Shown: in pieces, positions 6,532-63,007 of the stretch
How positions within the stretch are numbered: position 1 is the first letter of the stretch
How the letters are laid out: each line of letters opens with the position of its first letter
DNA from: Candidatus Microgenomates bacterium
Lineage (GTDB): Bacteria > Patescibacteriota > Microgenomatia > UBA8517
Assembly (NCBI GenBank): GCA_049523135.1
Contig: JBEKNE010000001.1
Coordinates: forward strand, 82,095 to 146,094
Reading direction: 5' to 3'
DNA: 64,000 bases
Position numbers and translations under genes: made by a program
Notes under the pieces: generated by a model
Databases searched by the model: none
The model's input: the letters and a program-made list of their open reading frames with translations, nothing else
What the model was told of the DNA's origin: nothing

Positions 6532-6663
6532 CGTCGCGCTGAATATAGGCTAGAAATGTTTAGTTGTCAAGTAATCCATTGATGTTATCAGAACCACTCG
6601 TGAACAACGTCAGAACTTTAACCTCGAACTTTTGATACTTCGTGCCTAAACCAATCTAAAAAA

Positions 6664-6754
6664 GTGGAAAGCTATAAACGATGTTAGAACCTACTACACT
6701 CAACTCCAAGGGCATTGTTATATCCTGTGCTTCAGTAATTAGCCCTAAAAATTC
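6664..6754 (+). repeat. intergenic repeat element, copy B
   Basis: Matches copy A (3952-4050): gtggaaagctataaacgatgttagaacctactacactcaactccaag. Confidence 0.45.
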
Positions 6755-6931
6755 TTTCGGTGTGCAATGCCTGCACGGCCATGTGTGGGTCAAGTGCCAT
6801 TAAAAATACCCGAGACTCTCGATGGAACCAAATGTGGAGTAAAACAATACGCTGATTCAGGTGTAGATACTTGGAACCACACCACAAATTATTACCCAGA
6901 AGGTTAATATCTAACGAAGCATATAAACAGG

Positions 6932-7519: not shown

Positions 7520-7531
7520 AGGCGGCTCAGG

Positions 7532-8170
7532 TCAAGAACCCAGAGCAACATAATAAATTGGATATTCTTCTCTGGCGTTTATATCCAAAAGTTGAATTAT
7601 TTGTTTCTCGTGTAGTCCGCCAATTGCGCAACAACCCAATCCGACGGAGCCTGCAGTAAGATAAACATTTTGCACAAGATGGCCAGCTTCAATATACGGG
7701 AAAACCATCCCTTTATTCTTATATTTATCCGTAGTTCTGTGGAAAGTGGCAGTAATTATTAGCAGTACTGCTGCCTTTTTAAACCAAGGTTGGGTTTTTA
7801 TCCAAATCAAATCAGTTTCTTTCTTTTTAACTTCTTGATTTAATATATCGAGATTATTGTTTACCGGATTGTAATGATACAATCCCGGCACTATCTCTTT
7901 GCTAAAAAGGATTAAGGGATATATCTCGAGAGGGTATTTAGCACCCGCAGACGGATAAGCCCGAAAGGATTTATCCTCATCAATTTTATTTTGCCTAGTT
8001 ATACCTGCACTGTAATACAAAATCTCTGAAAGTACATTTTTTGTTATTGGCTTACCTGTAAACTCTCTAAAAGATGAACGCTTTTTTATCAAGTCATGAA
8101 GCCCGTTTTTTCTTGATTTAATACTTAAACTAATCTTTGGTAATCTCGGATATTGTTTATGCATTGTCAA
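7532..8170 (-). CDS. SagB-type (McbC-like) FMN-dependent dehydrogenase, nitroreductase superfamily
   Basis: Hallmark ...FRAYPSAGAKYPLEIYP... The start overlaps the YcaO stop by 4 nt (ATGA coupling). Confidence 0.75.
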   Translation of the reverse strand: MTMHKQYPRLPKISLSIKSRKNGLHDLIKKRSSFREFTGKPITKNVLSEILYYSAGITRQNKIDEDKSFRAYPSAGAKYPLEIYPLILFSKEIVPGLYHYNPVNNNLDILNQEVKKKETDLIWIKTQPWFKKAAVLLIITATFHRTTDKYKNKGMVFPYIEAGHLVQNVYLTAGSVGLGCCAIGGLHEKQIIQLLDINAREEYPIYYVALGS

Positions 8171-17104: not shown

Positions 17105-17466
17105 ATAAACTCTTGGCAATATCACTAGCTCCAAATGGCAACGGTTTTACTGGTATAGGAACCAGTCCACTTGCAAACCCCGGCGGTAATTCTGTTAGCA
17201 TTTTCTCAAATTTTCTATCTACCATAGTCGGTGTTATGACAATTGTCGCCGTAATTTGGGCTGTTTTTACTATAATCACAGGAGCCATTGCAATTATCGG
17301 TTCCGGTGGAGATAAGCAGGCACTCGAAAGCGCAAGAAAAAGAATAACAACAGGAATTATTGGATTGATAATTGTTATAATCGCGCTTTTTATAGTCGAA
17401 ATTGTAGGTCACATTCTCGGAATTGAAAATATATTGAATATTCAACAGCTTTTAAATTTAAAATGA
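17101..17466 (+). CDS. VirB2/TrbC-like pilin paralog 5
   Basis: ...IGSGGDKQALESARKRITTGIIGLIIVIIALFIVEIV... Confidence 0.55.
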   Translation: MNKLLAISLAPNGNGFTGIGTSPLANPGGNSVSIFSNFLSTIVGVMTIVAVIWAVFTIITGAIAIIGSGGDKQALESARKRITTGIIGLIIVIIALFIVEIVGHILGIENILNIQQLLNLK

Positions 17467-17774
17467 TTACAAACCCTGTTCTTAATCAAACTAATACTAA
17501 CGGTGTAAGTTTTTTACAAAATGCTGTTCCAGCTGCAATCGGCATGGCATTTCTGGCAGGGGCCATAATATTTTTTTTCATGCTAATTTTTGGCGCGATT
17601 AAATGGATTTCGTCGGGTGGAGATAAGCAGGCACTCGAAAGCGCAAGAGGAACAATAACCAGTGCATTAATCGGAGTGTTTATCCTTTTTGCCGTATTTG
17701 CAATAATCCAGCTTATCAATACTTTCTTCGGACTTCATATTTTGAATCTCACAATACCTACCCTAAAACAATGA
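17463..17774 (+). CDS. VirB2/TrbC-like pilin paralog 6
   Basis: ...ISSGGDKQALESARGTITSALIGVFILFAVFAIIQL... It shares an identical 33-nt stretch with paralog 5. Confidence 0.55.
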   Translation: MITNPVLNQTNTNGVSFLQNAVPAAIGMAFLAGAIIFFFMLIFGAIKWISSGGDKQALESARGTITSALIGVFILFAVFAIIQLINTFFGLHILNLTIPTLKQ

Positions 17775-17825
17775 AATTAATACTGACTCTTGACATCAAT
17801 AAGCCAGTAATTCAATAATGTACAT

Positions 17826-18158
17826 ATGCAGAATTTAATTGCACAAACAATCAGTTTAACTCCTGCTCCCAACAGTGGATTTCAAAATTTGGGTGGGATT
17901 ACTGCTCCCGGCATTGTTTCTGCGGCAATCAGACTTGCTGTTGTTGTTGCAGCAATAGTCTTTTTCTTTATTTTGGTAATCGGAGGAATTCGCTGGATTG
18001 CTTCAGGTGGAGACAAAGCTCAAACCGAAGCTGCAAGAAATCAAATTACAGCAGCCCTCGTTGGACTTGTCATAGTTTTTGCCGCTTGGGCAATAGTTGC
18101 CCTTATTAACACATTCTTTAACGTTAACATCTTCTCCCTGGTTATCCCTTCTATTTAA
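17826..18158 (+). CDS. VirB2/TrbC-like pilin paralog 7
   Basis: ...IASGGDKAQTEAARNQITAALVGLVIVFAAWAIVALI... Confidence 0.55.
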   Translation: MQNLIAQTISLTPAPNSGFQNLGGITAPGIVSAAIRLAVVVAAIVFFFILVIGGIRWIASGGDKAQTEAARNQITAALVGLVIVFAAWAIVALINTFFNVNIFSLVIPSI

Positions 18159-18207
18159 TACATTAATACAACTTGCTCAAAGTAGTACCACAGGTTAAAA
18201 TGTTTTT

Positions 18208-18519
18208 GTGGGAAGTTTTATTGTAAAAGCCCAAGGAACAACATCAGGGATCGCCACCATTTCCGATTTGGAAAGTGTTTTTACTAGGGTTGTCAGTTTG
18301 GCTCTCGGACTTGCCGGAATAACACTTTTTATTTTGTTAATTGTCGGCGGATTCAAGTACATTACTTCCGGAGGAGATCCAAAAGCTGTTGAGGGAGCCC
18401 AAAAAACTCTAACATATGCAATTGGAGGCTTAATTGTAATTCTCCTTTCTTATCTAATCCTCGTCCTAATCTCCAAGATAACAGGTGTTGATGTTACCAC
18501 CTTCACAGTTACACAATAA
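18208..18519 (+). CDS. VirB2/TrbC-like pilin paralog 8
   Basis: ...ITSGGDPKAVEGAQKTLTYAIGGLIVILLSYLILVLI... GTG start. Confidence 0.5.
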   Translation: MGSFIVKAQGTTSGIATISDLESVFTRVVSLALGLAGITLFILLIVGGFKYITSGGDPKAVEGAQKTLTYAIGGLIVILLSYLILVLISKITGVDVTTFTVTQ

Positions 18520-18563
18520 TATTCTTCATAAAGCCTTAGGGTCTTGGGTTATAATAAATTAAG

Positions 18564-21107
18564 ATGAAAATTACCAAACCATATTTCCTATCACTAAACT
18601 TTAAGTCATTAATAACTATAAATTTTGTTCTATTCATATTTATCTTTTATAATCTAACTATTACTGCTCCAGTTCACGCGCAAGATCAGGCTCCGATTCC
18701 AAATGTATTGGTACTATGTCCTCAAAAAGCTCCTCCTCCAACCGAATTTAATTCGATGAGACCGTTTCAAGCAAACACAACATGCACTTCACAGATTGCT
18801 AATACAGCAAGTTTCTGTGGCAATCAACTAACTTTAAGGGAAACAATTAATGAAACTTACCCTGGAGATGGAGACTGTACAACCCAAGGTGGTATCGTAA
18901 CTTGTAATTTCAATGCCAAGATTCCACCCCATACGATAATAATCAACTTAAGCCAAGCCAACTTGCCAATAATGGGTAATACCGAAGACGTTATTAATAG
19001 CCAAAACCCAACCAAATCAACACTAAGTTCTGCCGACCTTATGAATAACTATGTCAGCTGGTATTTGGAAGGCACAAATTCAAAAGCAGAGGGTGTATCG
19101 TCCGCCATCCAAAGCGATACCAGTTCAAGCAATACAGTAAACTATTCCGGACCTATAAATAAACTTCTACCCCAAGATATACAATTCATCGCCCGGGCCA
19201 ATACCGTCAACCAAGCAATGAATACCCGGCATGATCAGGTGGTCGGTTGTAGTTTTAATATTTCAGTAAATGATCTAAATAGTTTATTACTAACATTTGG
19301 CATTACTCTTCCGAACATCCAAATACTTGATTTCCCGATTCCCTGCTATGGAAATAACCCTTTGCTAACCCAATTTATAACAAGGCATTATTTAAGTGAA
19401 TGGAAAGGTAATACGCCACCGCTCTTATCTCAATATAAAGATCAATTGGATTATTGGAAAGCTTATAAAACATGGCAGGGAAACGCATGCAACACCATTA
19501 CAATTCCAGGTTTTGTTCCAATAATAGGCAACCAAAAAATGCTCATTTGTATAAATAATCTCACCGTCTCTAAATATCTTTCCTATCTCTATTCTTATAT
19601 CCCCTACTCGTCCACAGAGGATCTTCAAGGAAGTATATCTATAGATAATGTTTCCTCAGCTACTAGTCCAACTACCAGTGGTGTAACTGTAAATGGTGTA
19701 ACTTTCTCGGGACAAAAACCATCAACGTTGTTTTTTTCCCACATGGCTGAATCGAATCAAGATGCCGCCCTTCTTCAGAATACCTTTGCACCACAAGGAG
19801 CTGACGAGGTCGGCAATCCAACCAACATATCATCAAACACCACCTGTAACACTCTTGACGTCAGATCTAACAAAGGTGATAATTTGTTTGCCTCGCAACT
19901 ATCCGGAGATCTTAGTTACACAGCTAAATTCTCATGCCAATTTAATGCCATTTCCTCCACTTCAACAAATTGTAAGCCAAACGGGTCTGTGTGTACTGAC
20001 GGAACAGAATGCTGTAGTGGATCCTGCACTCCTGAAGGTATAAACAGCTACTGTATGCAAACTGTCCAAACATGTACGAAAGATGTCTATATTGCCCTCT
20101 CCACTGAATCCAGTACACCCGATGTTGATGATATTTGGTCACGCCTTGTTGCAGGCCCTATGGCAATTTTCAAAAGAATCTTTCCTGAAACCAATACAAC
20201 CGACAGCGTTGGAACAATAATTGATATTCCGGGTTCAACAAGTATAACCTACTCAGCCGCAGGCGTCAGTCAGGATAGTGCTGACCTTAAACTACCCCAT
20301 CTTGGCGGAATATCCGAATATTTTTTAAAAGGAATTCAAACAGCTCTCAGGCCAAAAGGTTTTGGGGACACAATAGAATTTGCACAAACTACCGCAAGTT
20401 CGTGTACAGGCGGAACTTTACCAACTCTTCCCGCAGGTCAAGGGTCTTGTACACTAAAATCCTCCGACACTCTCCCAACGGGTGCAGCAATGCCCCCAAC
20501 CTTAAAGGCAATTCTTGAGGCCGCCGGACAAAGTTACAACGTCCCACCCTCTCTTATCCTTGGTGTTATGTATGGCGAAGGCGCGTTTAATCCGGGTAAA
20601 TATGACTGGACCGAAGATAATGTTAAAGCCTGGAGCACCGGGTGTGCTACCATGCCGAGTTGCAATCAAAACACTTTTCCTTCCCAGGGTCCTGTCCCTT
20701 TTTTCGCACCATATTGGAATAACTTAAAAGATGCAGTAAAAGTTGTCGATCCAGAAAGAACTCCAAACCCATGCAACCTGATGGATACCATTTTTGCCTT
20801 GGCTAAAGATTTGGCATCAGACCAATACGGAAGTAATGATTTTGCAGGAAAAACATGTTACGGAATAAATTTGAATAGTGGCAGTTCTAATTCCAGTTTC
20901 TGCAACTGGAGTCAAAGCGATGTTGAAACTGCAATTAGAATTTGGGAATTTGGTACTGTATACAATGATACTTGCGGAACCAAAGTTGGTGGCTGTGCTA
21001 ATGGTGGTTATGCGTCTGCGTGCGATGGAGATATTTGCGAAAAAGTGGGAGGATCCGGTAATACCAGTCATAACGCCTGTGTTTGGAATATAGCAAATAC
21101 ATACTGA
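18564..21107 (+). CDS. large secreted Cys-rich protein with C-terminal lytic-transglycosylase-like (VirB1-like) region
   Basis: Signal-anchor at the N-terminus. The C-terminus reads ...AGQSYNVPPSLILGVMYGEGAFNPGKYDW..., resembling the SLT-domain catalytic region. Confidence 0.45.
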   Translation: MKITKPYFLSLNFKSLITINFVLFIFIFYNLTITAPVHAQDQAPIPNVLVLCPQKAPPPTEFNSMRPFQANTTCTSQIANTASFCGNQLTLRETINETYPGDGDCTTQGGIVTCNFNAKIPPHTIIINLSQANLPIMGNTEDVINSQNPTKSTLSSADLMNNYVSWYLEGTNSKAEGVSSAIQSDTSSSNTVNYSGPINKLLPQDIQFIARANTVNQAMNTRHDQVVGCSFNISVNDLNSLLLTFGITLPNIQILDFPIPCYGNNPLLTQFITRHYLSEWKGNTPPLLSQYKDQLDYWKAYKTWQGNACNTITIPGFVPIIGNQKMLICINNLTVSKYLSYLYSYIPYSSTEDLQGSISIDNVSSATSPTTSGVTVNGVTFSGQKPSTLFFSHMAESNQDAALLQNTFAPQGADEVGNPTNISSNTTCNTLDVRSNKGDNLFASQLSGDLSYTAKFSCQFNAISSTSTNCKPNGSVCTDGTECCSGSCTPEGINSYCMQTVQTCTKDVYIALSTESSTPDVDDIWSRLVAGPMAIFKRIFPETNTTDSVGTIIDIPGSTSITYSAAGVSQDSADLKLPHLGGISEYFLKGIQTALRPKGFGDTIEFAQTTASSCTGGTLPTLPAGQGSCTLKSSDTLPTGAAMPPTLKAILEAAGQSYNVPPSLILGVMYGEGAFNPGKYDWTEDNVKAWSTGCATMPSCNQNTFPSQGPVPFFAPYWNNLKDAVKVVDPERTPNPCNLMDTIFALAKDLASDQYGSNDFAGKTCYGINLNSGSSNSSFCNWSQSDVETAIRIWEFGTVYNDTCGTKVGGCANGGYASACDGDICEKVGGSGNTSHNACVWNIANTY

Positions 21108-21128
21108 AATCTGCTAGAATATTAGGAA

Positions 21129-22883
21129 ATGAAAAAACTGCTCGTATCTTTTTTACTTGGTATCGTTCTCCTACTCAGTTTTGCTTCTTTGTCAAGAATA
21201 AACGCTGCGGGTTTACCAAATAATCCCAACCTAAATTCAACAGCTGCAACTGCAGATACAAGTACCGGCACTTGGTACAACCAATCGTTTCAGGAGTGGT
21301 ACAACAAGGTTTATGATACAAGTAACCCCAACGAAATATTCGGCGAGCGTTACACCGCAGCACAAGTTCAGTGGGTAATTTACGGTCTATTTAGTTCAAT
21401 GATAAATTCAACAACCGGCCCACAAACCACACAGGCCATACAGTGTTTTCTAACTAACAGTGCCAATATCAACAATTGTGTTAGTGCTCTCCAAGGTGTT
21501 TTTCCTAAGATAACAGCTGCAAAACAAGGTATGATTAATCAAAACCAAAACAAGAATGCAACTCTGTTATCGTTAGTCTTTGCAAGTGATCGTCCGATTT
21601 CGGGCATATCATACATCAAAGAAAGAATTCAAAAATTAAGCCTTGTCCCTGAGGTATATGCACAAACAACTAATAGTTCTGTAGGTTTCGGCTATGGTGT
21701 CTTAAAACCGATCCAACAGATGTGGGTTGCCGTTCGGGATGCCGCTTTTGCACTCTTTGTCATAGTAGCAATTGTCATGGCGTTTATGATTATGTTCAGA
21801 GTAAAAATTTCCCCACAAGTTGTAATTTCTATCCAATCCGCCCTTCCAAAAATTATTATTGCTCTTATTTTAGTAACCTTTTCATATGCAATAGCGGGGT
21901 TTTTGATAGATCTTATGTATGTAGTAATCGGTTTCGTTAGCTTGATGCTTGCACCGATGGCCAACAGTGTTGCTCTGTTTGCAAAGGGTGCTTTTTCTTC
22001 AACCGATGTGTTCCAATGGATGACGGTAGGCCAACTTGGTCTTGGTATATTCGGAACTATGATAATCTATATAATTCTTTTTCTCGTCAGTCTATTGCTA
22101 CTTCTCGCATGTAATTTGGGTGTCGTCGGTGCGGGACTTGTAATATTTATACCTGGCGTATCAGCTGTTCTGGGAATCATTTTGATAGTAGCTGTAGTAA
22201 TAATTCTAATTATTGCACTTTGGAACTCTTTCAAAACATTATTCTCTCTTATTAAAGCGTTTGCCTCGGTTTTATTATTAACCATAGTTGCACCTTTGGA
22301 AATTGCTGCGGGGGTGGTTATTCCAAATTTTGGTTTTAACATGTGGTTAAAAAGTTTTTTGGCAGCACTCTCAACTTTCATTGTTACGGGTATTTTAATT
22401 TTTATGTCATACATCTTCCTGTGGGAGGCTTGGGCTATCGCTGGATTTAGCGGGGCGGGGGATCTTATGCAAACAATATCAACCTTAATTTTTGGTTCAG
22501 TTGCTATCATAACCGCAACAAATTTAACAGGAACTTCCGGAGCAGGTTGGCCCCCACTCATTGGTGGAGGGGGAAATAACCCGGCTATGGCTCTACTTTT
22601 TTTGGGAGTAAGTTTTGTAATTTTTACTCTTATTCCAAAGGCAAGTGAGATTGTTCAAGCATTTATTACCGGCAAACCGTTTGCTTACGGAACATCCCTT
22701 GGTGAAGCGGTTGGACCAGTGGGTACATTTGGGCTTGGTTATGCTGGAAGATCTCTAGCAGACCTGCAGACGCCTTGGCCTTTGAACCGAATAAGGGCTA
22801 TTAGGGAATGGCGAGAAGCACATCCAAACACTGGTGCTGGTATTGGCCAAGTCATGTCAAATGCGGCAAGGGGTGGACGTTAA
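21129..22883 (+). CDS. VirB6/TrbL-like polytopic membrane protein
   Basis: Signal peptide, a ~180-aa extracytoplasmic region, then at least 6 hydrophobic helices. It sits between the pilin array and the VirB4 module. Confidence 0.5.
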   Translation: MKKLLVSFLLGIVLLLSFASLSRINAAGLPNNPNLNSTAATADTSTGTWYNQSFQEWYNKVYDTSNPNEIFGERYTAAQVQWVIYGLFSSMINSTTGPQTTQAIQCFLTNSANINNCVSALQGVFPKITAAKQGMINQNQNKNATLLSLVFASDRPISGISYIKERIQKLSLVPEVYAQTTNSSVGFGYGVLKPIQQMWVAVRDAAFALFVIVAIVMAFMIMFRVKISPQVVISIQSALPKIIIALILVTFSYAIAGFLIDLMYVVIGFVSLMLAPMANSVALFAKGAFSSTDVFQWMTVGQLGLGIFGTMIIYIILFLVSLLLLLACNLGVVGAGLVIFIPGVSAVLGIILIVAVVIILIIALWNSFKTLFSLIKAFASVLLLTIVAPLEIAAGVVIPNFGFNMWLKSFLAALSTFIVTGILIFMSYIFLWEAWAIAGFSGAGDLMQTISTLIFGSVAIITATNLTGTSGAGWPPLIGGGGNNPAMALLFLGVSFVIFTLIPKASEIVQAFITGKPFAYGTSLGEAVGPVGTFGLGYAGRSLADLQTPWPLNRIRAIREWREAHPNTGAGIGQVMSNAARGGR

Positions 22884-22894
22884 GTAAGTAATTT

Positions 22895-25666
22895 TTAACC
22901 ACGGGGTAAAACCACAAAATGCTCAGGTTCTTTACTTTTCTGTGAGGCATCCATAAATCCATACTTAACAACAAACCCATCTCCCTTAGCAGTACCTTCT
23001 ACAGCCTGTCTGATATTCATGTTTTCTTCTTTATGACTTTGAAAGTTATAAAACTTAACCAGCGTTGACAACCATGTGGAATAACCAATACCACTCCTTT
23101 CACCTTCATACCAATTCTTCTTGCCTTTATTAATGTCTTCTTCCGCCTTTTTCTTAGCTCTAAAATTCGCATAGGCAATACGATCCCTTCTCTTTTCTTT
23201 TTCATCATTCCCTTCCCCTGAATATTCCTTTTGTCTATCAGAATAAAAGTTTCTCCATTCGCCATTTATTGCAACAGCGTCATGCCTTGTTATCGTCCAG
23301 AATTTTATTTTATCTGTATAAAATTCAGGTCTTTGAAGTTTATGGGGGTCATCAATCGGTTTCATCCAATATTGATAAAGCCTCTTATCTTTACTGGCTG
23401 GTGATCCATCTTCTGCAGAAAGAAACCCCATTATCCAATAATAATTATCGGCGTTGTCCGTGATTCCTTCCCCAGACAATTCTACTGCAGATTTTACTTT
23501 ATCTGGAACCTTAACCTTTTCCCAATCTAGATCACCCAAATCTTTAGCCTTTTCATTTGGTCTACTTCCATCCGGCGACTTGAAGCCAAGCCACTGTTCC
23601 TCCAAACTTCTTGTCTCTCCTCGAATCTCTTTGGGAACGTCTTCATTTTCCGAAAGATCTGTTCTGCAAAGCCTTAATTCACTGAGCATTGTATAATCTA
23701 GCTTATCGTAAGTCAGGGGTGGGCCTGCAGACCTATCTCTTATTATCTCCTTAAATCTCCACCATTCTGTGTGTATTGTTTTTGAAAGATCGCTCGCTAC
23801 GGGCTCACCTTCCAAAACTAAAAGCTTTTGATAATCTTTAAAATAGAAAGCTCTTTCTTCATCAGAAAGATTATTTACCATGTCATGAAGTTTTTCTCCT
23901 TTAGGAAAATTCTTTTCTGCAGTATAAAGCTCTAAAGCTAATTCATCGCGCATTCCTCTAATCCAAAAAAATCTACCTGCGTCAGTAACCGCTCCTTTAT
24001 CTCCTTCATCTCCTTCATCGTCAACAATCAGATTCATTCTTTCCGTAAGAAGATACAAATTATCTCTGCTCATTTCAGAATATGGATTTCCTTTCTCTGT
24101 CAAATATCCTCTCTTCCCCTTCTCCCCTTTCAAATCAAACTCTATATTATCACTACGATTAACTGAACCCGAACCAAACATCGCAAGCTTCTTTTGATAT
24201 CTAAACTCTTTAGAATCATCTTTTGATTCAGCCAGCGCGTGACCTTGAATAATAGGATAAGGATCCCTTTCTTCATCTGTTAACCACCCATCAAGTTTAT
24301 ATCGTATTTGCTTATCACCATCTTGCTGGGTGATTGTCACATCTGGTCCAATAAGAAATTTGACGGCAAGTTTGAACTTTTCAAAAACGCCCATTTTTAG
24401 TAACTCTGTCAGTTCTTCATCAAACTCAGGCATTTTTATGCCTTCAACTTTTACTGTAGGATCTTTCGTATTCCTTTTAATTTGCTCCTCCTTTAATTGG
24501 TCATGTTTCTCTTTGGCAATTTTCAAAACCCTATTTATTGTAGTCGCATCAACATTTCTATCTTTGTCCGGAACATAGTCAAGTATCTCTTCAAGGTTCT
24601 GGGTTTCGTTTAGATGTTTTTCCAACTTCCCTCGTGTTTCACTCATACCAATCAAATAAAAAAGTCTCATTGCTTTGTCTCTCTTGTCCCCAAGCTCATG
24701 ATTTTCTGCTTTTTCAGGAGTTATTTTTGAGATATCTGCTGCATTAAAAAACCACTTAATCTGTTTATTGGTAAAGTATATTTGATATTTATAGAACTGT
24801 TCAACCATAACTTCCAACGAAGCCCTATTCCTATCAAAGGCTATTGTCTGGTTTTGTAATTCCTCTCCGGTTATAAGTTGTTGATGGAGAGCCTCATGGG
24901 CTTTTGCTAATGCAAGTCTTTCCTTTTGGGTTCCGAAATTAACAACCTCTTTTATGACAGGCACCATCTCGGTTTTTTCCACAGTTCTAAGAGGACCTAT
25001 TCTGTCTAATGTCTGTTGATTTAATTCAGCTTCTCTTTCAATAACAGTACTTGGCTTTTCTCCACCTTTCTCCTTCCTTATACTTAATGCATAGCCCGAA
25101 ACACGCACTTCTCCTTGAACTAAGTCACCATTAGAAGCAATTAAACCATCCCCCGAGATGACGCTTTCTTTACGTAGACCATAAGTTACACTTAGATCAA
25201 GATCAACACCCTCCTTCTCATTAATTGAGACCTTTCCTTCCTTCGTAACCCCAATTACTTGAGGGGTTTTTGCAGCAGTAGCGGCGGCATTAAACTCACT
25301 CATTAATATATCGGCAAATGCTTGTGCCTCAGTTCCTGACAATTCTACAGAACCTTTTTCGTAAGCCCTCTGTCCCTCAAGGGCGGTTCTTTTCAAACCA
25401 GAAAAAGTAAACCTGTCTATAGATTCACCAAAATGTGGATTTTCATAATCAATAAGAAGTTCCTTTACTGCTGCTACATCCTTGGAATTTTCAGCATGTG
25501 TTAAACGATTTACAAGGCGGTCTCTTTTGGCAAAATCTTCTTCTCTTTGTGTAGCGAACTGTGCTTCAAACTGCTCCATCCCTGACTTCTGCGGTTCTGA
25601 TTGGTTTGGACTTAAACTTGGATATGTTTCAGTGAGATTGGCCATTATGGTTAAATTATATAACAA
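22895..25666 (-). CDS. large hypothetical cytoplasmic protein (923 aa), opposite strand within T4SS-like locus
   Basis: Long highly charged ORF with no TM segments and no Walker motif. I recognise no domain in it. Confidence 0.5.
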   Translation of the reverse strand: MLYNLTIMANLTETYPSLSPNQSEPQKSGMEQFEAQFATQREEDFAKRDRLVNRLTHAENSKDVAAVKELLIDYENPHFGESIDRFTFSGLKRTALEGQRAYEKGSVELSGTEAQAFADILMSEFNAAATAAKTPQVIGVTKEGKVSINEKEGVDLDLSVTYGLRKESVISGDGLIASNGDLVQGEVRVSGYALSIRKEKGGEKPSTVIEREAELNQQTLDRIGPLRTVEKTEMVPVIKEVVNFGTQKERLALAKAHEALHQQLITGEELQNQTIAFDRNRASLEVMVEQFYKYQIYFTNKQIKWFFNAADISKITPEKAENHELGDKRDKAMRLFYLIGMSETRGKLEKHLNETQNLEEILDYVPDKDRNVDATTINRVLKIAKEKHDQLKEEQIKRNTKDPTVKVEGIKMPEFDEELTELLKMGVFEKFKLAVKFLIGPDVTITQQDGDKQIRYKLDGWLTDEERDPYPIIQGHALAESKDDSKEFRYQKKLAMFGSGSVNRSDNIEFDLKGEKGKRGYLTEKGNPYSEMSRDNLYLLTERMNLIVDDEGDEGDKGAVTDAGRFFWIRGMRDELALELYTAEKNFPKGEKLHDMVNNLSDEERAFYFKDYQKLLVLEGEPVASDLSKTIHTEWWRFKEIIRDRSAGPPLTYDKLDYTMLSELRLCRTDLSENEDVPKEIRGETRSLEEQWLGFKSPDGSRPNEKAKDLGDLDWEKVKVPDKVKSAVELSGEGITDNADNYYWIMGFLSAEDGSPASKDKRLYQYWMKPIDDPHKLQRPEFYTDKIKFWTITRHDAVAINGEWRNFYSDRQKEYSGEGNDEKEKRRDRIAYANFRAKKKAEEDINKGKKNWYEGERSGIGYSTWLSTLVKFYNFQSHKEENMNIRQAVEGTAKGDGFVVKYGFMDASQKSKEPEHFVVLPRG

Positions 25667-25779
25667 GATTGATAATTAAGAAAAGCAAATCTATTTGTGA
25701 AAAAGGTTTCCTCTTGAATTAGATACTTCACGATATAGGCTGTAATAGAACTGCCCTACTTCGTAGGAGCACTTTAGTT

Positions 25780-26856
25780 ATGGAACAACATCCGATTCCG
25801 CAACAAATTAGTTCTTACCAATTTAAGTTGGTGGGGGATATGACCCTCAAGCAGTTTTTCCAACTTGCCGGGGGGCTTTTGGTGGGTCTAATTTTATATT
25901 CTTCCCCTCTTATCGGGATTGTAAAGTGGCCTTTGGCAATCTTTTCTGCAATTCTCGGCATTGCTTTAGCCTTTATGCCCCTCGAGGAGCGCCCTCTTGA
26001 GCGCTGGATTTTCGCTTTTTTCAAAGCAATTTATACTCCAACCATTTTTTTCTGGAAAAAAACAACTACTATTCCAAAATTCTTTCAGGATGAAACTTCC
26101 GGAACCACTCTTTCTCTGGCTAACCCAAGTCAGGATGTGGCGCTTAAAAACTATCTATCCGTCTCCAAACAGGCCTCAGCTCCCCTTTCCAAACTTGAAG
26201 GTGCAGAGCAAGGGTTTTTATCAAGCCTAAGTGGAATTTTTGCAGGGCTTACACAAACACCAACTCCAGCAAGCCAAACAGCAGCTCCCCTGCCTCAAAA
26301 CACAACTGGAATTAAAAGAACTGTTGAAATTCCGCAAAGCACCCCCATTCGTGTTACAGCACAAACTCCCCATCTGGTTGTTGAGGAAAAACCGAAAGTT
26401 GTGACTCCTTCTTATCAGGTTTCCACCCAACAAGTATCTCCTGTTATTGCCGGCGAGAAAATGATTTCAACAAGGCAAGCTATTTTTTCAATAGACGCAG
26501 CTCCTCCCAATCCCCCGACATCACCAAACATTGTGGTCGGGCAAGTGGTTGATGAAGGAAGAAAAATTGTCGAGGGGGCTATTATGGAAATACGGGATGA
26601 AGCCGGCCGGCCGATTAGAGCCCTAAGAAGCAACAAGCTTGGACATTTTGTTATTGTTACCCCGCTTGATAACGGAAGGTACGATATTGCTACAGAAAAA
26701 GACGGTTATCAATTTACCCCCGTCAGTTTTAATGCAACAGGAGCTATAATTCCGCCGATTTTGGTTGAAGGAAGAAGAATTGCGGTGGTGCAAGGAATTC
26801 CGGTTCAAATAGTAAATCCAAATCAATTTGCAACACAACCTGTTAGTCAATATTAA
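25780..26856 (+). CDS. VirB3/PrgI-like membrane protein with C-terminal extension
   Basis: The N-terminus reads YQFKLVGDMTLKQFFQLAGGLLVGLILY...AIFSAILGIALAFMPLE (2 TM). It is followed by a Pro/Thr-rich linker and a beta-rich domain. It precedes VirB4, as in Gram-positive T4SS loci. Confidence 0.4.
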   Translation: MEQHPIPQQISSYQFKLVGDMTLKQFFQLAGGLLVGLILYSSPLIGIVKWPLAIFSAILGIALAFMPLEERPLERWIFAFFKAIYTPTIFFWKKTTTIPKFFQDETSGTTLSLANPSQDVALKNYLSVSKQASAPLSKLEGAEQGFLSSLSGIFAGLTQTPTPASQTAAPLPQNTTGIKRTVEIPQSTPIRVTAQTPHLVVEEKPKVVTPSYQVSTQQVSPVIAGEKMISTRQAIFSIDAAPPNPPTSPNIVVGQVVDEGRKIVEGAIMEIRDEAGRPIRALRSNKLGHFVIVTPLDNGRYDIATEKDGYQFTPVSFNATGAIIPPILVEGRRIAVVQGIPVQIVNPNQFATQPVSQY

Positions 26857-27544
26857 AACTATGCCATTACCTAAAATTCCATATCTAAGCATTCCCGATA
26901 AACCCCTCATGGCAACCAGTCAGGAACACCTTCCCGTTGCCGACATTACAAACGATATCGTTATTTATAAAGACGGCGGAGCCGCTCTTGTTATGGAATC
27001 CACTTCTCTAAACTTTGGGCTTCTTTCGGAAAAAGAGCAGGAGGCCGTGATTGCCGCTTATGCCGCAATGATTAATTCGCTTACATTTTCAATACAGATT
27101 GTGGTTCTCACCCAGAAAAAAGATATCTCTACTTATTTAAGTTTTTTGGATGAACAGGCAAAAAAAATTACCCAACCTCTTCTTGCCAAGCTTATGCAAG
27201 ATTATAGAAATTTCATTACCGATTCTGTTAAGAAGAAAAATGTTCTAGGTAAAAGATTTTTTGTTGTTTTATACTTCTCGCCTCTTGAGCTTGGTGTTGG
27301 AAAATCCGTTGCCGCCATTGCCAAGAGATCTGGCCCGCTTCCCTACGCGGAGTCCTACGTTATTAAAAAAGCCAAAATCACGCTTTACCCGAGACGTGAC
27401 CACTTAATCCGTCAGGCGGGACGGCTCGGAATCAAATTCAGACAGCTTTCTACAAATGAGCTAATTGATCTTTATTATTCCGTTTACAATCCCGAAAGTC
27501 CCGCCGTTAAAAAAGAACCTGAAGTTATACTTGAACACAAATGA
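26828..27544 (+). CDS. hypothetical T4SS-associated protein
   Basis: 238-aa ORF translationally coupled to VirB4 (4-nt overlap). No recognisable motif. Confidence 0.4.
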   Translation: MQHNLLVNIKTMPLPKIPYLSIPDKPLMATSQEHLPVADITNDIVIYKDGGAALVMESTSLNFGLLSEKEQEAVIAAYAAMINSLTFSIQIVVLTQKKDISTYLSFLDEQAKKITQPLLAKLMQDYRNFITDSVKKKNVLGKRFFVVLYFSPLELGVGKSVAAIAKRSGPLPYAESYVIKKAKITLYPRRDHLIRQAGRLGIKFRQLSTNELIDLYYSVYNPESPAVKKEPEVILEHK

Positions 27545-29367
27545 AAATCTTTAAATCAAAGACAACAACCAACCAAACATTAAATCCCCAGCCTTTACAA
27601 CCCGAGGTTAAACCGGGAATTACTTCCGCTTCTCTGGCGGTAAGCCGTGGTATGAAACTTTTGGATGTAATCGCTCCGCAATCAATCGAAACAGATTTTG
27701 ACTACATAAAAATTAATGATATTTATTTCAGAACAATATTTGTCGGGGGTTACCCCAGATTTGTTGCCCCCGGCTGGCTTGAACCTGTAATTAATATTGA
27801 TACTTCCCTTGATATTGCTTTTTATGTTTATCCCGTTGATGGTAAAACAGTACTCGATGACCTCAGACGTAAGATTGCCGAAATGGAGGCTGAAATGTCA
27901 ACGGATATTGAGCGCGGAAAAATAGTTGATCCTTCAACACAAGCAAAACTTGAGGATGCAAGAAGTCTTCAGGAACAACTCGTAAAAGGAATTGAAAGAT
28001 TTTATGAGTTCTCCTTTTACATAACTATACCAGCGAACTCGCTCGAAGAGTTGAATCAGATTACCAAACAGGTGGAATCCCAACTTGGGTCCCTTCTGAT
28101 TGTCAGCAAGCACGCCATGCTGGATATGGAAGATGGATTTTTGTCTACGGCCCCTTTCGGAATGGACAGACTCAATATCACAAGAAACATGGACACAACT
28201 TCCGTCGCTACAACTTTTCCTTTGACTTCAACCGAGCTTTCAAGCGACCGCGGTGTTTTGTACGGCATTAATTCTCAAAACGAATCGTTTATTATTTTTG
28301 ACCGCTTCAGTTTGGAAAATGCAAACATGACTATTTTTGCGACAAGCGGGGCCGGAAAATCATACTTCGTAAAACTCGAGGCACTAAGAAGTCTAATGGT
28401 TGGTGTGGAAGCAATTGTAATTGACCCCGAAAGCGAATATAAGTCCCTCGCAACTGCGGTCGGGGGTGAGTTTATTTCTTTTTCCTATAATTCTCCCGCC
28501 AAAATTAATCCTTTTGACCTTTCCCAAATCAGGGAGGAGGGAGAAAACCAACTGGGTCTTAAAATTCTTTCTCTCCACTCTCTAATGAAAGTAATCATGG
28601 GTGCAATTACTCCAACACAGGAAGCGCTTCTCGATCGAGCCCTTATCATGACTTACAGAGCCAAAGGAATAACCATGGACCCCGATACTCAAGGAAAAGA
28701 ACCCCCCCTCATGGAAGATCTTTATAAAACACTAATCGGAATGGAGGTACCTGACGCACTTGACCTTGCGGCCCGAATTGAAAAATTTGTCAGGGGAAGT
28801 TTTGTGGGAATTTTTGATAAGCAAACAAACATCAATATTACAAACCCCTTTACGGTTTTTTCGGTCAAAGATTTGGAGGACACGCTTCGCCCCATCGCCA
28901 TGTTTATTATCCTTGACTACATTTGGACAAGGATTAAAAAAGATATGAAGAAAAGAATTCTAATAGTGGATGAGGCGTGGACAATGATGAGATATCCGGA
29001 TACGGCGCAATTTCTTTGGAGTGTTGTCAAGAGGTCCCGTAAATACTATCTGGGACTCACTACGATCACCCAGGACGTCGAAGACTTCCTAAGTCAGGAC
29101 ATTGGAAAGGCCATCGTCACAAACAGCGCTATGCAGGTCCTGCTGAAGCAGTCTCCGGCCGCAATAGACAAAATCGGCGAGGTCTTTTATCTCTCTCAGG
29201 GAGAAAAGCGACTACTCCTCGCCGCCAATGTCGGAGAAGGAATATTTTTTGCGGGGCCCCACCACGCCCCTATTAGGGTTGTTGCCTCTGAAGAAGAAAA
29301 TAGATTAATTACAACCAAGCCGCAGGAAGTAATTAAGGTTTCGACAAACCCTTACCAAGTAAAATAA
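27541..29367 (+). CDS. virB4: VirB4/TraC/CagE-family conjugative ATPase
   Basis: Walker A ...IFATSGAGKSYFVK.... Walker B ...RILIVDEAWTMM.... The N-terminal region DFDYIKINDIYFRTIFVGGYPRFV is typical of the family. Confidence 0.85.
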   Translation: MKIFKSKTTTNQTLNPQPLQPEVKPGITSASLAVSRGMKLLDVIAPQSIETDFDYIKINDIYFRTIFVGGYPRFVAPGWLEPVINIDTSLDIAFYVYPVDGKTVLDDLRRKIAEMEAEMSTDIERGKIVDPSTQAKLEDARSLQEQLVKGIERFYEFSFYITIPANSLEELNQITKQVESQLGSLLIVSKHAMLDMEDGFLSTAPFGMDRLNITRNMDTTSVATTFPLTSTELSSDRGVLYGINSQNESFIIFDRFSLENANMTIFATSGAGKSYFVKLEALRSLMVGVEAIVIDPESEYKSLATAVGGEFISFSYNSPAKINPFDLSQIREEGENQLGLKILSLHSLMKVIMGAITPTQEALLDRALIMTYRAKGITMDPDTQGKEPPLMEDLYKTLIGMEVPDALDLAARIEKFVRGSFVGIFDKQTNINITNPFTVFSVKDLEDTLRPIAMFIILDYIWTRIKKDMKKRILIVDEAWTMMRYPDTAQFLWSVVKRSRKYYLGLTTITQDVEDFLSQDIGKAIVTNSAMQVLLKQSPAAIDKIGEVFYLSQGEKRLLLAANVGEGIFFAGPHHAPIRVVASEEENRLITTKPQEVIKVSTNPYQVK

Positions 29368-29368
29368 C

Positions 29369-31720
29369 ATGGCAAATAAGATCAGCCTTACCCAAGAAAA
29401 TATTAAGTATATAAGAGATGCTTTTTCGCATTTCTTTCCGGAGGATATAATTTATTCTGCAGACAAACCGTATGTTTCGGGCGAATTTAACTGGAACAAT
29501 CGGAGAGGTTTTATAAATTTTGTCTACCGACTCACTGGCGTCGAAATTAAATCGGAAAAAGATTTCGGAAACATCAAAAAGGCTCAGCTCGCCGTTGAAG
29601 ATCTGGTTGAAACAACCGAATCGGAAGAAAAAGTTACTTCAAATGTTCCCGAAAAAGGTTTAAGGGAAGAGCAGGAAGTTGAAAGACAAAGAAGAGAAGC
29701 GGCACTCAAAGAATCTACAGAAAGTGCCAAGAAAAACATTGAGGCATCCATTAAAAGGCAACAACAACTTGCCGAGGAACTGAAAAACAAAAAAGTTTAT
29801 GTAAAAGCCGAGGCTCCAAAGACCACAGAGTTAATTAACGAGGAACAAAACTCCATCGACACTCTCAAAAAAGCTGCTGAGGCGGATCCGAAAAGGTTGG
29901 TCGATCAAATTACTGGCGAAATTGAAAAGAGAATTGCTTCTTCAAATCCGCAGGCAGATCCAAAGGAGGTTCATCTCCTGGCAGAACAGGCGGCGTACGA
30001 TACCGTTAAAAATCTTCAAGGTCAATCTTTAGCGCAGGAGGCTGTAATTTCAAACGCAGTTGCAAAAGGCAATGTCGCCGTCACCAAAATAGTTACTAAG
30101 GAAGGCCAATCTACTCTTCAACAAGCCGCCTCGGATGTCAAAAACCAGCAAATTTTGGAATATACAGTAAGCAGGGATCTTGCTTCTTCTACTTTTGGAG
30201 AAAATTTTGCAAGCAACGTCTTCGGTCCAAAAAAACTTGATGATTTTCGAATTGAATTTTCAAGTAAGCCAAACACCGGTTTTGTCTCCTATGATCTATC
30301 ACAAATTCCCAACAATTTTTCCGCATCACTTGGTGATCAGGGAAATTTTCTGGGGAGTATAAAGGATTTTGGGGTAGGAAAAATAAAATCTCAGTTTTTA
30401 GAACAGGCTTCCATTAGACTCGAGGGGTGGATCGGACAACTTCCGTCCAACAGTTTTCTGGCTCAGACCTACAACAATGAATTAGTTCAAGGTGCTTTAT
30501 CCTATTTCGGCTTGGGAGGATCTTCTGTTGCATGGGAAGGAACAACTTTTTTTGGAAGACTGGCTGTAGATAACGGCTTTGGGCCAATTATTGGGTGGCT
30601 GGGTGAAAAAACAGGAATTGATTTTGGCATCGCCAGTGTTGCAACAGATATAGGGGGAGAGATTGTTGGAAGTGGTCTGACAGGTGAAGCTGCCGCAAGT
30701 TTGGTTGCAGGTGAAACTGCAGCAACCTTAACAGGAGAGGTTGCAGCCGTTGCCGGAGGAGAAGCCGCAGGAGCTGCAGTTGGTACAGCAATTGTCCCCA
30801 TCCCCATTATAGGAACCATTGTTGGAGCTGTTGTTGGTTGGCTGGCAAGCAAAATTGACTGGCAGAAAGTCGGTCCATTTCTTGTCGGAGCAGTTGTAGG
30901 GTTAGGTGTCGGCATTGTTGCCGGGTTGGGAGTAGGAATAGCTGCGGGTGTTGGGGCGGGCCTTTTGACCTCCGGAATTACCGGCGGATTGCCTAGCCTG
31001 TCCTCAATAGGATCGGGTATTGCGGGTTTTACCACAGCTCTGGCTAGTGCCATGGTTGCCGCAATTGGAATTCCAATACTTGTTACACTTCTCGTCTTTC
31101 CTGTGGTTGTTGCCCTAATTCTTTTTATAATTAACTCCGGAGCCTATGTTGTTCCAACAACAGGTATAGCTAACGTTACTTGTAATATAGACCAAAGTAG
31201 CGGACAGACATCTCAAACATACAAAAGCACCGCGGCTAATGCTGCCGTCTGTATAGTCTCATACCTCAATGAGTTTGGTCTTAACCCACTCTTAGTAGGC
31301 TTGCTTGATACTCCATCTTGGCAAAATCTAGTAAAAGCTCTTCCTGCACCCGCTCTTGAGGCACTTCAAATTTCGGCGCCTGTTGATGGACATCTTCAAT
31401 GTGTTGGATTCGCTGCTGCAACTGCCGGTTGGGCTTATGGCCAAGCCTTTGGCCAAATAAACGCCTGTTCTTATATTAATAATCCGCCGGCCGGATATAG
31501 TTATGTCTCCGGAACTACAGGAATTCAATCCGGAGATTTTTTCCTTATAAATGGTTCACATGGGTGCAGCGCAAGTTCACCGGGGCATATTGGTGTAGTA
31601 ATATCGGTAGACGGGGCACTTATCAGTTGTGCGGATGCAAACATGATTGGACCGGGAGAAACGCGCGTCGCAAATGGGTGTTTTGCATTATCCCAACTGA
31701 CGGGGTATCTGAGAAGATAA
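29369..31720 (+). CDS. coiled-coil / Gly-Ala-rich membrane protein with C-terminal CHAP-domain peptidoglycan hydrolase (PrgK/TcpG-like)
   Basis: The C-terminus reads ...QCVGFAAATAGWAYGQAFG...GHIGVVISVDG..., carrying the Cys/His of a CHAP domain. The central region is rich in G/A/V and hydrophobic. Confidence 0.6.
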   Translation: MANKISLTQENIKYIRDAFSHFFPEDIIYSADKPYVSGEFNWNNRRGFINFVYRLTGVEIKSEKDFGNIKKAQLAVEDLVETTESEEKVTSNVPEKGLREEQEVERQRREAALKESTESAKKNIEASIKRQQQLAEELKNKKVYVKAEAPKTTELINEEQNSIDTLKKAAEADPKRLVDQITGEIEKRIASSNPQADPKEVHLLAEQAAYDTVKNLQGQSLAQEAVISNAVAKGNVAVTKIVTKEGQSTLQQAASDVKNQQILEYTVSRDLASSTFGENFASNVFGPKKLDDFRIEFSSKPNTGFVSYDLSQIPNNFSASLGDQGNFLGSIKDFGVGKIKSQFLEQASIRLEGWIGQLPSNSFLAQTYNNELVQGALSYFGLGGSSVAWEGTTFFGRLAVDNGFGPIIGWLGEKTGIDFGIASVATDIGGEIVGSGLTGEAAASLVAGETAATLTGEVAAVAGGEAAGAAVGTAIVPIPIIGTIVGAVVGWLASKIDWQKVGPFLVGAVVGLGVGIVAGLGVGIAAGVGAGLLTSGITGGLPSLSSIGSGIAGFTTALASAMVAAIGIPILVTLLVFPVVVALILFIINSGAYVVPTTGIANVTCNIDQSSGQTSQTYKSTAANAAVCIVSYLNEFGLNPLLVGLLDTPSWQNLVKALPAPALEALQISAPVDGHLQCVGFAAATAGWAYGQAFGQINACSYINNPPAGYSYVSGTTGIQSGDFFLINGSHGCSASSPGHIGVVISVDGALISCADANMIGPGETRVANGCFALSQLTGYLRR

Positions 31721-31730
31721 AAGTAGTAAA

Positions 31731-32366
31731 ATGAAAAATATCAAACCAAAATTTAAAATTGTAGGGATAATAGCCGTTGTTTTTATTATTCTCGCTATTA
31801 CTCTTATCTATGCTTTGCAAAAAAACAAAACCACGACATCAATACCAATTGCCATAACAGATTCCACACCAAAAGACGGCGCTTCCGGGGTTAGTGTTTT
31901 TGATCCAATCACCATTACTTTCAATCAAAAAGTTGATTCGTCTACCTTTACAGTTTCCTCCGACCCGTCAGAAAATTGGACTATTTCACAAACCACACCA
32001 AGTACTATTAAGTTAGACCATCAACTCTATCTGGAAGTTTCTACCACATATAAATTAACAGTCTTGCAAAACGATAATGTTGTTGGAACAATAACTTTCG
32101 AAACAGAAAACGAACAAAACGATCCCCGCCAGCTGCAAAATTTACAATCCGAGCTAAACAAAGATTATCCTTTGGCTTCACTCACACCCTACGAAACTTC
32201 CAATTTTCGTGTTGTCTATACAGCACCCTTAACGCTGGGGATAACCCTTAAAGGCTCCACAGAAGCACAAGATGCAATTTTACAAGTAGAATCTTGGGTA
32301 GAATCGAATGGTATCGATCCGGGAACACATAAATACATTATAATTGCCGCTTCCCCTACTCCTTAA
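31731..32366 (+). CDS. hypothetical membrane-anchored secreted protein (Ig-like fold likely)
   Basis: N-terminal TM IVGIIAVVFIILAITLIYAL, then a beta-rich sequence. Confidence 0.4.
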   Translation: MKNIKPKFKIVGIIAVVFIILAITLIYALQKNKTTTSIPIAITDSTPKDGASGVSVFDPITITFNQKVDSSTFTVSSDPSENWTISQTTPSTIKLDHQLYLEVSTTYKLTVLQNDNVVGTITFETENEQNDPRQLQNLQSELNKDYPLASLTPYETSNFRVVYTAPLTLGITLKGSTEAQDAILQVESWVESNGIDPGTHKYIIIAASPTP

Positions 32367-33478: not shown

Positions 33479-33695
33479 AATATTTCCTTTTTTGCTGTTT
33501 ACCGTTCTCTCTTTATTATCATATATTAACTAGTAGTTCTAGTAGTAGGTGGTGTTGATAAGTTGAGAACTTTCCGTTTTTGATTATAATCTTCGGGCCA
33601 TATTCGTGTTCATAATACGCACAAGTAATTGTTGATAAATTTGTGGATAAAGTCACTCTCTGTGTTGATAAGTACATAAGTAAATATAATTATCC
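33479..33695. promoter_or_regulatory. DnaA-box cluster between dnaA and dnaN (oriC component)
   Basis: tgttgataa at 33554-33562, 33630-33638 and 33663-33671. tgtggataa (rc TTATCCACA) at 33642-33650. ttatcctca at 33690-33698. The region is AT-rich. Confidence 0.55.
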
Positions 33696-61668: not shown

Positions 61669-61687
61669 TATTTTTAAGTGTACAAAC

Positions 61688-61716
61688 TTGACACATATTC
61701 CGCAAGTGCCTATACT
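61688..61716 (+). promoter_or_regulatory. sigma70-like promoter of DGR target gene
   Basis: TTGACA (61688-61693), a 17-nt spacer, then TATACT (61711-61716). AGGAGG SD at 61755-61760, 5 nt before ATG 61766. Confidence 0.5.
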
Positions 61717-63006: not shown

Positions 63007-63007
63007 T

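Follow-up and report, generated by a model that had tools for sequence, protein, structure and literature searches.

The T4SS (type IV secretion system) ATPase VirB4 was found in 2,417 of 3,035 Patescibacteria genomes, in a clade nested in the MPF-FATA class (Quinonero-Coronel et al. 2025, PMC12102498). According to this survey, the Patescibacteria systems have an adjacent TrsD and PrgI/VirB3 as well as arrays of 2-11 PF18895 pilin genes, which are particularly abundant in Microgenomatia, and those of Microgenomatia and Paceibacteria lie near dnaA, dnaN and rnpA; relaxases are present in only 103 of the 3,035 genomes, and VirD4 is common but distant from virB4 (PMC12102498). In Southlakia epibionticum, the cluster SEML1_0006-0019 has a Gram-positive-like composition with an essential pilin array (Wang et al. 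2023, PMC10633639), and transposon sequencing showed this T4SS, in which neither a coupling protein nor a relaxase is recognisable, to be essential for epibiotic growth (PMC10633639). A 2025 review gives a matching account (PMC12857230), the function of the Patescibacteria T4SS has been called "completely unknown" (PMC11665869), and tubular structures that are possibly T4SS pili were reported at the parasite-host interface of an RNA-feeding parasite (bioRxiv 10.64898/2026.06.21.733656). Here, we describe a T4SS locus in a 64,000-nucleotide stretch of a Candidatus Microgenomates genome (contig JBEKNE010000001.1, positions 82,095 to 146,094), which is referred to as the window and whose coordinates are used throughout.

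We conclude, with a probability of roughly 0.85, that this locus encodes a vertically inherited, origin-proximal T4SS/pilus system of Patescibacteria, which represents a derived branch of the monoderm MPF-FATA machinery. A system of this kind, carried beside the replication origin by almost all of the ultra-small Patescibacteria and ascribed to interaction with a host instead of conjugation, is already known, and each feature of its parts list and context has been published (PMC10633639, PMC12102498). Like the Patescibacteria-clade T4SSs (PMC12102498), the window encodes VirB4, an adjacent TrsD, PrgI/VirB3, a probable VirB6-like protein and a PF18895 array, with hydrolases beside virB4, no local relaxase or coupling protein and a chromosomal position near dnaA/dnaN. 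This parts list and its operon structure are conserved in related genomes, and there are no DNA-processing genes nearby. The assignment to a Gram-positive-type (MPF-FATA-like), probably non-conjugative T4SS, which had been made in an earlier reading of the sequence (the original prediction), fits both our findings and the published accounts (PMC10633639, PMC12102498, PMC12857230).

The cluster extends from about 15229 to 32366 (~15.2-32.4 kb) and comprises 17 genes, for which the term "minimal", as originally used, is not appropriate. A first tightly packed plus-strand operon runs from eight pilin genes over the gene of a secreted 847-aa protein (sec847) to the virB6-like gene, and a second one, likewise tightly packed, from prgI over trsD, virB4 and the gene of a CHAP protein to that of a Big_5 protein, with one minus-strand gene (22895-25666, 923 aa) between both operons. 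The limits of the original prediction, 18564 and 31720, correspond to the start of the 847-aa ORF (open reading frame) and the end of the 783-aa ORF and were too narrow, since the pilins (15229-18519) and the Big_5 gene (31731-32366) also belong to the locus, and the 923-aa minus-strand gene had not been mentioned. Gene overlaps within the cluster suggest translational coupling. Promoter and terminator scans yielded no excess over the shuffled expectation.

The VirB4 ATPase (608 aa, 27541..29367, plus strand) matches Pfam P-loop_TraG with 99.6 bits and AAA_10, scores 370.5 bits against the NCBIfam model conju_CD1110 (NF045971, cutoff 325) and carries Walker A (ATSGAGKS, 267-274) and Walker B (ILIVDE, 473-478) motifs, in line with the ATPase predicted originally. 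VirB4 covers positions 178-735 of the 752 positions of the CD1110 model, i.e. the N-terminal ~177 positions are missing. The upstream gene (26828..27544, plus strand), which overlaps virB4 by 4 nt, encodes a 238-aa protein that had been regarded as unknown and is instead TrsD/TraC-like, representing the N-terminal VirB4 domain as a separate gene: it matches positions 27-108 of the CD1110 model, positions 112-234 of VirB4_plasma (NF045975, E 5.7e-9) and the TrsD family (NF041427, E 7e-7), and has a precomputed match to TraC-like PF26593. As TrsD matches the N-terminal region of the model and the 608-aa VirB4 the remainder, VirB4 is split into two polypeptides. VirB4 has an exact counterpart (100% identity) among the NCBI proteins of Candidatus Microgenomates, and the best 120 of ~8,000 scored homologues are 85-93% identical and belong to Microgenomates and Woesebacteria; the organism names among these 120 matches are Microgenomates, Woesebacteria, Patescibacteria group, Saccharimonadales or unclassified 'uncultured bacterium'. 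Taking the CD1110 score and these top matches as a proxy for clade placement, the window VirB4 would be of MPF-FATA type with its closest relatives in Patescibacteria, and the host can be taken to be a Microgenomates (Woesebacteria-like) bacterium.

PrgI/VirB3 (25780..26856, plus strand) matches PF12666 in residues 5-84 with 27.4 bits (gathering score 27) and consists of two transmembrane helices (26-63), a long linker rich in Ser, Thr, Pro and Gln, and, at the C-terminus, a domain resembling a beta-sandwich with a weak CarboxypepD_reg match (residues 252-311, E 4.8e-4), in agreement with the predicted VirB3-like protein with a beta-domain. Among the 80 related loci, full-length PrgI is present in 72 and TrsD in 74.

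No ORF of at least 100 aa in the 64-kb window matched a VirD4/TraG or relaxase family of Pfam, there was no match to TrwB_AAD_bind, T4SS-DNA_transf or TraG-D_C in the window, and neither VirD4 nor a relaxase was found among the called genes of ~10 kb beyond either window end. The observation that no VirD4 or relaxase is in view therefore holds, also with regard to a VirD4/relaxase pair just outside the window. CONJscan defines a conjugative MPF-FATA system by VirB4, a coupling protein, a relaxase and MPF genes. From the lack of a relaxase or coupling protein at the locus we conclude that it is not a conjugation apparatus.

The first pilin (pil1, 15229..15969, plus strand) starts with a signal peptide, after which come Cys-rich modules and, at the C-terminus, a VirB2-like pilin domain (PF18895 T4SS_pilin, 30 bits, residues 171-233), and contains 20 Cys residues. 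A regular expression located two CGx5ACCSPxF... repeats (residues 31 and 108), between which another Cys-rich module of looser form can be seen by eye; this pilin may be an adhesin or tip pilin. It is followed on the plus strand by seven more tandem VirB2-like pilins (15975-16358, 16405-16740, 16742-17104, 17101-17466, 17463-17774, 17826-18158 and 18208-18519), each of which matches PF18895 with 24-41 bits. According to hydropathy, each of these seven has two to four hydrophobic segments around a conserved GGD(P/K) loop. The mean pairwise identity among the eight pilins is 28% (published mean 25%, PMC12102498), and several of the genes overlap by 4 nt or are 1 nt apart. This eight-gene array strengthens the suggestion that the locus could serve filament assembly. 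The repeats of pilin 1 (CGx5ACCSPxFxC...) and a knottin-like motif in the 847-aa protein resemble small disulfide-rich carbohydrate-binding or inhibitor modules; the Cys-rich modules of both proteins gave no Pfam match, and their best match among PDB sequences was a trypsin-inhibitor knottin with E 0.7.

A probable VirB6-like component is the polytopic membrane protein of 584 aa encoded at 21129..22883 (plus strand). It carries a signal peptide and an exported N-terminal domain of ~190 aa, and many of its segments are hydrophobic and predicted to span the membrane. Its homologues number at least 1,925, every one of which is annotated as "hypothetical" and lacks a Pfam domain. The protein itself gave no Pfam match, and one of its 17 orthologues matches PF04610 (TrbL/VirB6) with E 0.0015. 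The four top Foldseek matches of its AlphaFold2 (AF2) model (pLDDT 73) across the whole PDB are R388 TrwI/VirB6, and these matches are weak (probability 0.5-0.85, E 0.17-0.6, TM-score 0.33-0.38). Together with the position of the gene, these features lend moderate support to the VirB6-like protein of the original prediction. VirB6 was reported to be "scarce" in Microgenomatia, with extreme divergence suspected (PMC12102498), and the 584-aa family is probably the component that seemed to be scarce.

Two proteins of the locus are candidate cell-wall hydrolases. The Cys-rich sec847 (18564..21107, plus strand) has a signal peptide, 30 Cys residues and the knottin-like motif CX6CX5CCX3CX... at 470-497. 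Its C-terminal 250 residues have no Pfam match even at E values up to 1; at the corresponding position, three of ten positional orthologues match PF18896 (SLT_3) above threshold and one carries a GDSL esterase, and residues ~55-613 are shared in this family while the C-terminus is variable. Aligned to the ES/ET catalytic motif of the SLT_3 orthologues, sec847 keeps a helix with a Glu motif, LILGVMYGEG (PPSLILGVMYGEG); a second, GLMQ-like motif was not seen alongside it in the C-terminus. We therefore retain the secreted part of the original description, based on the signal peptide, and the SLT-like C-terminus only in part, as it matches in the three orthologues and not directly in the window; sec847 is a plausible VirB1-like candidate with a putative lysozyme/SLT-like C-terminal domain.

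The second candidate is the CHAP protein (783 aa, 29369..31720, plus strand), which combines an N-terminal coiled coil with a glycine-rich transmembrane region and ends in a CHAP domain. This domain scores 27.2 bits in isolation (gathering score 26) and 23.9 bits, just below threshold, in the context of the whole protein, and the catalytic residues Cys678 (QCVGF) and His740 (GHIGVV) are in canonical contexts, so that the predicted CHAP hydrolase was corroborated. PDB sequence searches with the single 847-aa and 783-aa proteins, and two profile searches, returned nothing useful. In orthologues of the CHAP protein, residues 1-600 are kept and the C-terminal enzyme is exchanged. Across the ORFs following virB4 in 57 related loci and the window (n=58), M23 is found in 13, CHAP in 3 and NAGPA in 2 cases; a further 18 of these ORFs are dnaA, in loci of other synteny, and the remainder have no Pfam match. 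Such swapping of hydrolase domains could reflect an adaptation to different (host) cell walls.

The window represents a chromosomal, housekeeping context. The cluster is adjoined by dnaN, followed by dnaA, rnpA, yidD, yidC and jag, and LeuRS, TsaD, GroEL, SmpB, tmRNA and tRNAs are encoded elsewhere in the window. The ~10 kb past the left window end encode DnaG, RpoD and sugar enzymes, and those past the right end the reverse transcriptase of a diversity-generating retroelement, a tRNA synthetase, RmuC and a UvrD/PDDEXK helicase. The dnaN-dnaA spacer contains a DnaA-box cluster (33553-33698) with five sites in 146 bp, one of them perfect, a further perfect DnaA box is located at 35136, and the cumulative GC skew has its minimum at 32-34 kb. 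The DnaA-box cluster and the skew minimum place oriC ~1.2 kb from the cluster end. The T4SS plus-strand genes left of oriC point at it and are thus head-on to the leftward replication fork, while the slot gene (our term for the minus-strand gene between the operons), dnaN and dnaA are co-directional with this fork; related loci show a like orientation, on which the published 'gene dosage' idea is silent.

Conservation of the locus was followed in 80 related genomes from a GTDB species set. The shared order comprises pilins, a sec847-like gene, a VirB6-like gene, a minus-strand slot ORF, PrgI, TrsD, VirB4 and a hydrolase, followed by dnaN and dnaA on the minus strand, rnpA and yidC. The position amid dnaN, dnaA, rnpA and yidC, with order alike, was found in 63 of the 80 genomes, and the closest complete relative (L093) has the identical 17-gene order. 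In matched genome pairs, the median identity is 61% for VirB4, 47% for DnaA, 35% for DnaN and 35% for YidC. This better conservation of VirB4 compared to DnaA points to a core system that is inherited vertically and strongly constrained, without mobile-element features.

Besides the Patescibacteria clade, several known systems share parts with the locus. The monoderm MPF-FATA systems (pCF10 Prg/Pcf, pGO1 Trs, CTn2 CD1110 and ICEBs1 Con) likewise have a CD1110-type VirB4, PrgI and a polytopic VirB6 analogue, together with a hydrolase that is anchored in the membrane and carries CHAP or another peptidase domain (PrgK, TcpG, CwlT), and pGO1 has TrsD as in the window. In contrast to them, the window has no relaxase, type IV coupling protein (T4CP), oriT, PrgB-type adhesin or recognised VirB8-like protein, contains VirB2-like pilins, which the Gram-positive systems do not have, and is a core chromosomal locus without hallmarks of mobile elements. 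The module of the Mycoplasma integrative and conjugative element (ICE), i.e. Mbov_0395 and Mbov_0397, is related in that TrsD corresponds to positions 112-234 of the Mbov_0397 VirB4 model, VirB4 scores 251 bits against this model, and pilin 1 weakly matches the pilin-like Mbov_0395 family; however, all window scores are below the equivalog cutoffs, and the Mycoplasma ICEs are mobile with their own DNA processing. Effector or toxin T4SSs without a T4CP, such as Bordetella Ptl and Brucella VirB, also work without VirD4 (PMC12102498, PMC12857230), but are diderm systems with VirB7/9/10 outer-membrane cores and substrates that reach the periplasm by Sec, none of which applies here. Searches for ComB-type features gave no VirB7/9/10-like matches in the window. 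Compared to the Saccharibacteria prototype, in which the pilins are divergent from all other genes and two large VirB6-like proteins are present, the Microgenomatia arrangement has a minus-strand gene encoding a hyperdivergent cytosolic protein between virB6 and prgI.

Based on homology and on experiments in Saccharibacteria, the system may function in pilus assembly, host contact and transport. The VirB4 motor, made up of TrsD and the 608-aa ATPase, would dock at the membrane through PrgI/VirB3, with the VirB6-like protein as a membrane platform, and both VirB4 and the VirB6-like protein would pull VirB2-like pilins out of the membrane for polymerisation into a pilus or tube, at the tip of which the Cys-rich pilin 1 may act as adhesin. 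Peptidoglycan at the host contact site would be opened by two hydrolases, the secreted lysozyme-like protein and the CHAP protein anchored in the membrane. The most likely outcome would be contact-dependent macromolecule traffic with the host bacterium, which could be protein export or import of host material. Such traffic with a host is implied by the essentiality for epibiotic growth in S. epibionticum.

Several points weigh against this interpretation. Essentiality has been shown in one Saccharibacterium only, with a different gene order; no VirB8-like protein was identified; and the VirB6 and SLT assignments of the window proteins rely on weak or indirect signals. A distal VirD4 elsewhere in the genome is likely, since VirD4 was found in 2,918 of the 3,035 surveyed genomes, mostly far from virB4, while a distal relaxase is unlikely. 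Furthermore, some sister lineages have a VirD4-like protein right beside prgI, such that a coupling-protein-dependent mode may exist.

The alternative that survives best is a machine for the import of DNA or other nucleic acids, like Helicobacter ComB or archaeal Ced, which would feed a nucleotide-auxotrophic epibiont. This explanation, which is favoured in one study (PMC12102498) and raised in another (PMC11665869), is possible but rather doubtful. Import does not conflict with the absence of a relaxase and T4CP, and the RNA-feeding parasite with its possible T4SS pili (bioRxiv 10.64898/2026.06.21.733656) would fit as well. VirB4 weakly matches CedB (54 bits) and CedD (31 bits, cutoff 600), but the CedB score is far under the cutoff of 700, and there are no CedA-like or ComB7/9/10 components and no recognised DNA-binding or nuclease component in the locus. 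Import would also be a sub-case of the contact-dependent traffic proposed above and is not truly exclusive with it. That the locus merely forms an adhesive pilus, i.e. a VirB2-type filament for host attachment without transport, appears improbable to us. The eight pilin paralogues, one of which has lectin-like Cys-rich repeats, could well build such a filament, VirB4 acts as the ATPase of pilus biogenesis in other T4SSs (PMC12102498), and no substrate-recruiting ATPase is present; however, Patescibacteria already adhere and move by type IV pili (PMC12857230, PMC11665869), and the strongly conserved VirB6-like channel protein and the two wall hydrolases suggest a conduit. The roles of pilus and conduit do not exclude each other. 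A conjugative element or its remnant, i.e. an integrated MPF-FATA ICE with its relaxase and coupling protein outside the window or lost, is highly improbable, since the VirB4 score above the cutoff of the NCBIfam 'conjugal transfer ATPase, CD1110 family', the homology of the machinery to Gram-positive conjugation systems (PMC12102498) and the VirD4-like gene beside prgI in some related loci are opposed by the lack of an integrase, relaxase, T4CP and repeat boundaries in the 64-kb window or its 10-kb flanks, by the dnaN/dnaA/rnpA/yidC setting kept in 63 of 80 related genomes, by a degree of VirB4 conservation that is unexpected for a mobile element, and by the rarity of relaxases in Patescibacteria.

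The slot gene (22895..25666, minus strand), which is convergent with virB6 and divergent from prgI, encodes an acidic cytosolic protein of 923 aa without transmembrane helix or signal peptide, for which no Pfam, NCBIfam or PDB sequence match was found, and its AF2 model (pLDDT 67) has no Foldseek match in PDB or BFVD. Only 13 homologues were recovered from 5.8 billion proteins, and a profile search of 1.84 billion representatives gave 65. Almost every Microgenomatia locus spanning this region contains a slot ORF of 450-1,340 aa on the minus strand, and these ORFs of related loci are without transmembrane helices or signal peptides and contain ~30% charged residues. In the comparison of the window with L093 by BLAST, VirB4 is 89%, TrsD 83%, PrgI 64%, VirB6 55% and sec847 39% identical, and with the other locus proteins thus at 39-89% identity, the slot protein (E 0.18) is the product of by far the most diverged gene of the locus. 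The possibility that slot ORFs are unrelated insertions was partly rejected, as iterated profiles and hhalign tie those of L003, L093 and L008 to the window family. In hhalign against the extended family, L093 reached E 1e-42 and L008 E 1e-10, and four others were weaker and collinear; the slot ORFs of L009, L024, L015 and L018 are tied to the window family in this weaker, collinear manner, and others are unlinked. The profile-level homology is mostly due to the C-terminal half, and phmmer detected almost no links among slot ORFs. Recognisable slot homologues are ~40% identical and occur in genomes in which VirB6 is ~48% identical. Deep allelic lineages or episodic hyperdivergence seem to fit this divergence better than a uniformly fast clock.

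A hidden relaxase or coupling protein was rejected for the slot protein, which has no Walker A motif and no HUH-like conserved histidines in 88 invariant columns, in addition to the lack of database matches described above (Pfam, NCBIfam, PDB sequences, and Foldseek in PDB and BFVD). No comparable opposite-strand gene is present in the Saccharibacteria prototype locus, and no discussion of the slot gene was found in the searchable literature. Speculatively, and with a rather low likelihood, the slot protein could be a translocated substrate, i.e. an effector that is delivered into the host bacterium, or a determinant of host specificity. Under this proposal, it would diversify by an arms race or by the exchange of ancient allelic cassettes.

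Gottesmanbacteria-like loci (L040, L043, L044, L051, L062) encode, just upstream of prgI on the opposite strand, a protein of ~730 aa whose Walker A motif lies near residue 350, and a charged ORF of 1,209 aa is located beyond this VirD4-like gene; the three scanned members of this cluster presumably correspond to three slot ORFs that match TrwB_AAD_bind, TraG-D_C and DUF87. A putative coupling protein is therefore associated with the locus in some Microgenomatia and is absent from the prgI-adjacent position in the lineage of the window. In a relative with a slot homologue (L092, homologue P0130), a gene at 5537-6592 between the sec847-like and VirB6-like genes encodes a Fic-domain protein with the motif HPFQDGNGRLSR and no signal peptide, not far from a HicA toxin gene. 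Classical T4SS effectors elsewhere include Fic proteins, but the one in L092 may simply be an insertion.

At the left edge of the cluster, divergent from the pilin array, a gene at 13322..15277 (minus strand) encodes a SpoIID/LytB-domain protein (Pfam SpoIID 47.6 bits, NCBIfam SpoIID_LytB 103 bits), which is possibly an accessory cell-wall enzyme whose membership in the system is suggested by its position alone. In L093 the gene is at the identical position with 64% identity. Because the 5' end of this ORF overlaps pil1, translation probably starts further downstream. The cluster ends with a gene (31731-32366, plus strand) that encodes a Big_5 (Ig-like) protein (PF13205, 32.2 bits), which is anchored in the membrane by an N-terminal transmembrane helix and was found together with the hydrolase gene in L061, L070 and L093. 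Upstream of the cluster, a 625-aa protein (10567-12444, minus strand) has one central transmembrane helix, no Pfam match and a repeat-rich C-terminal half that is a candidate propeller by eye; its gene adjoins those of a DUF5657 and a bPH_2 protein in an arrangement kept in relatives. As this protein has no P-loop, it was ruled out as a T4CP.

Two further features of the window lie apart from the T4SS. A cluster resembling those for ribosomally synthesised and post-translationally modified peptides (5110-9513, minus strand) consists of genes for a YcaO cyclodehydratase (8167-9513), a nitroreductase-family protein (7532-8170), a 195-aa ORF of unknown function (6932-7519) and a radical SAM/SPASM enzyme (5110-6531), and a 46-aa ORF near this cluster in relatives (L087, 13553-13693) could encode the precursor peptide. 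The diversity-generating retroelement mentioned above, also present in L083/L084, is seen at 62400-63355 and extends past 64000, with bAvd at 63008-63355 (minus strand) and the reverse transcriptase (RVT_1, 326 aa) just beyond the window end. Between its template repeat (62904-63009) and its variable repeat (62400-62505) there are 12 differences, 11 of which fall on template adenines, and the variable repeat is located at the 3' end of an ORF (61640-62509, plus strand) without a Pfam match.

Few machines are known to be essential for epibiotic life in the huge and mostly uncultured radiation of Patescibacteria, and the T4SS is among them; the window represents a textbook example from Microgenomatia that leaves the general picture unchanged. 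What it adds are a probable VirB6 of Microgenomatia, hydrolase "warheads" that are exchanged among close relatives, and the hyperdivergent slot gene. The 584-aa family, with its at least 1,925 unannotated homologues, offers a probable identity for VirB6 in this class. The residual value of the locus lies in the slot gene as a candidate substrate or specificity factor, which is positionally conserved, hyperdivergent and testable as a substrate; if its product were indeed an effector, it would be the first candidate cargo of a Patescibacteria T4SS.

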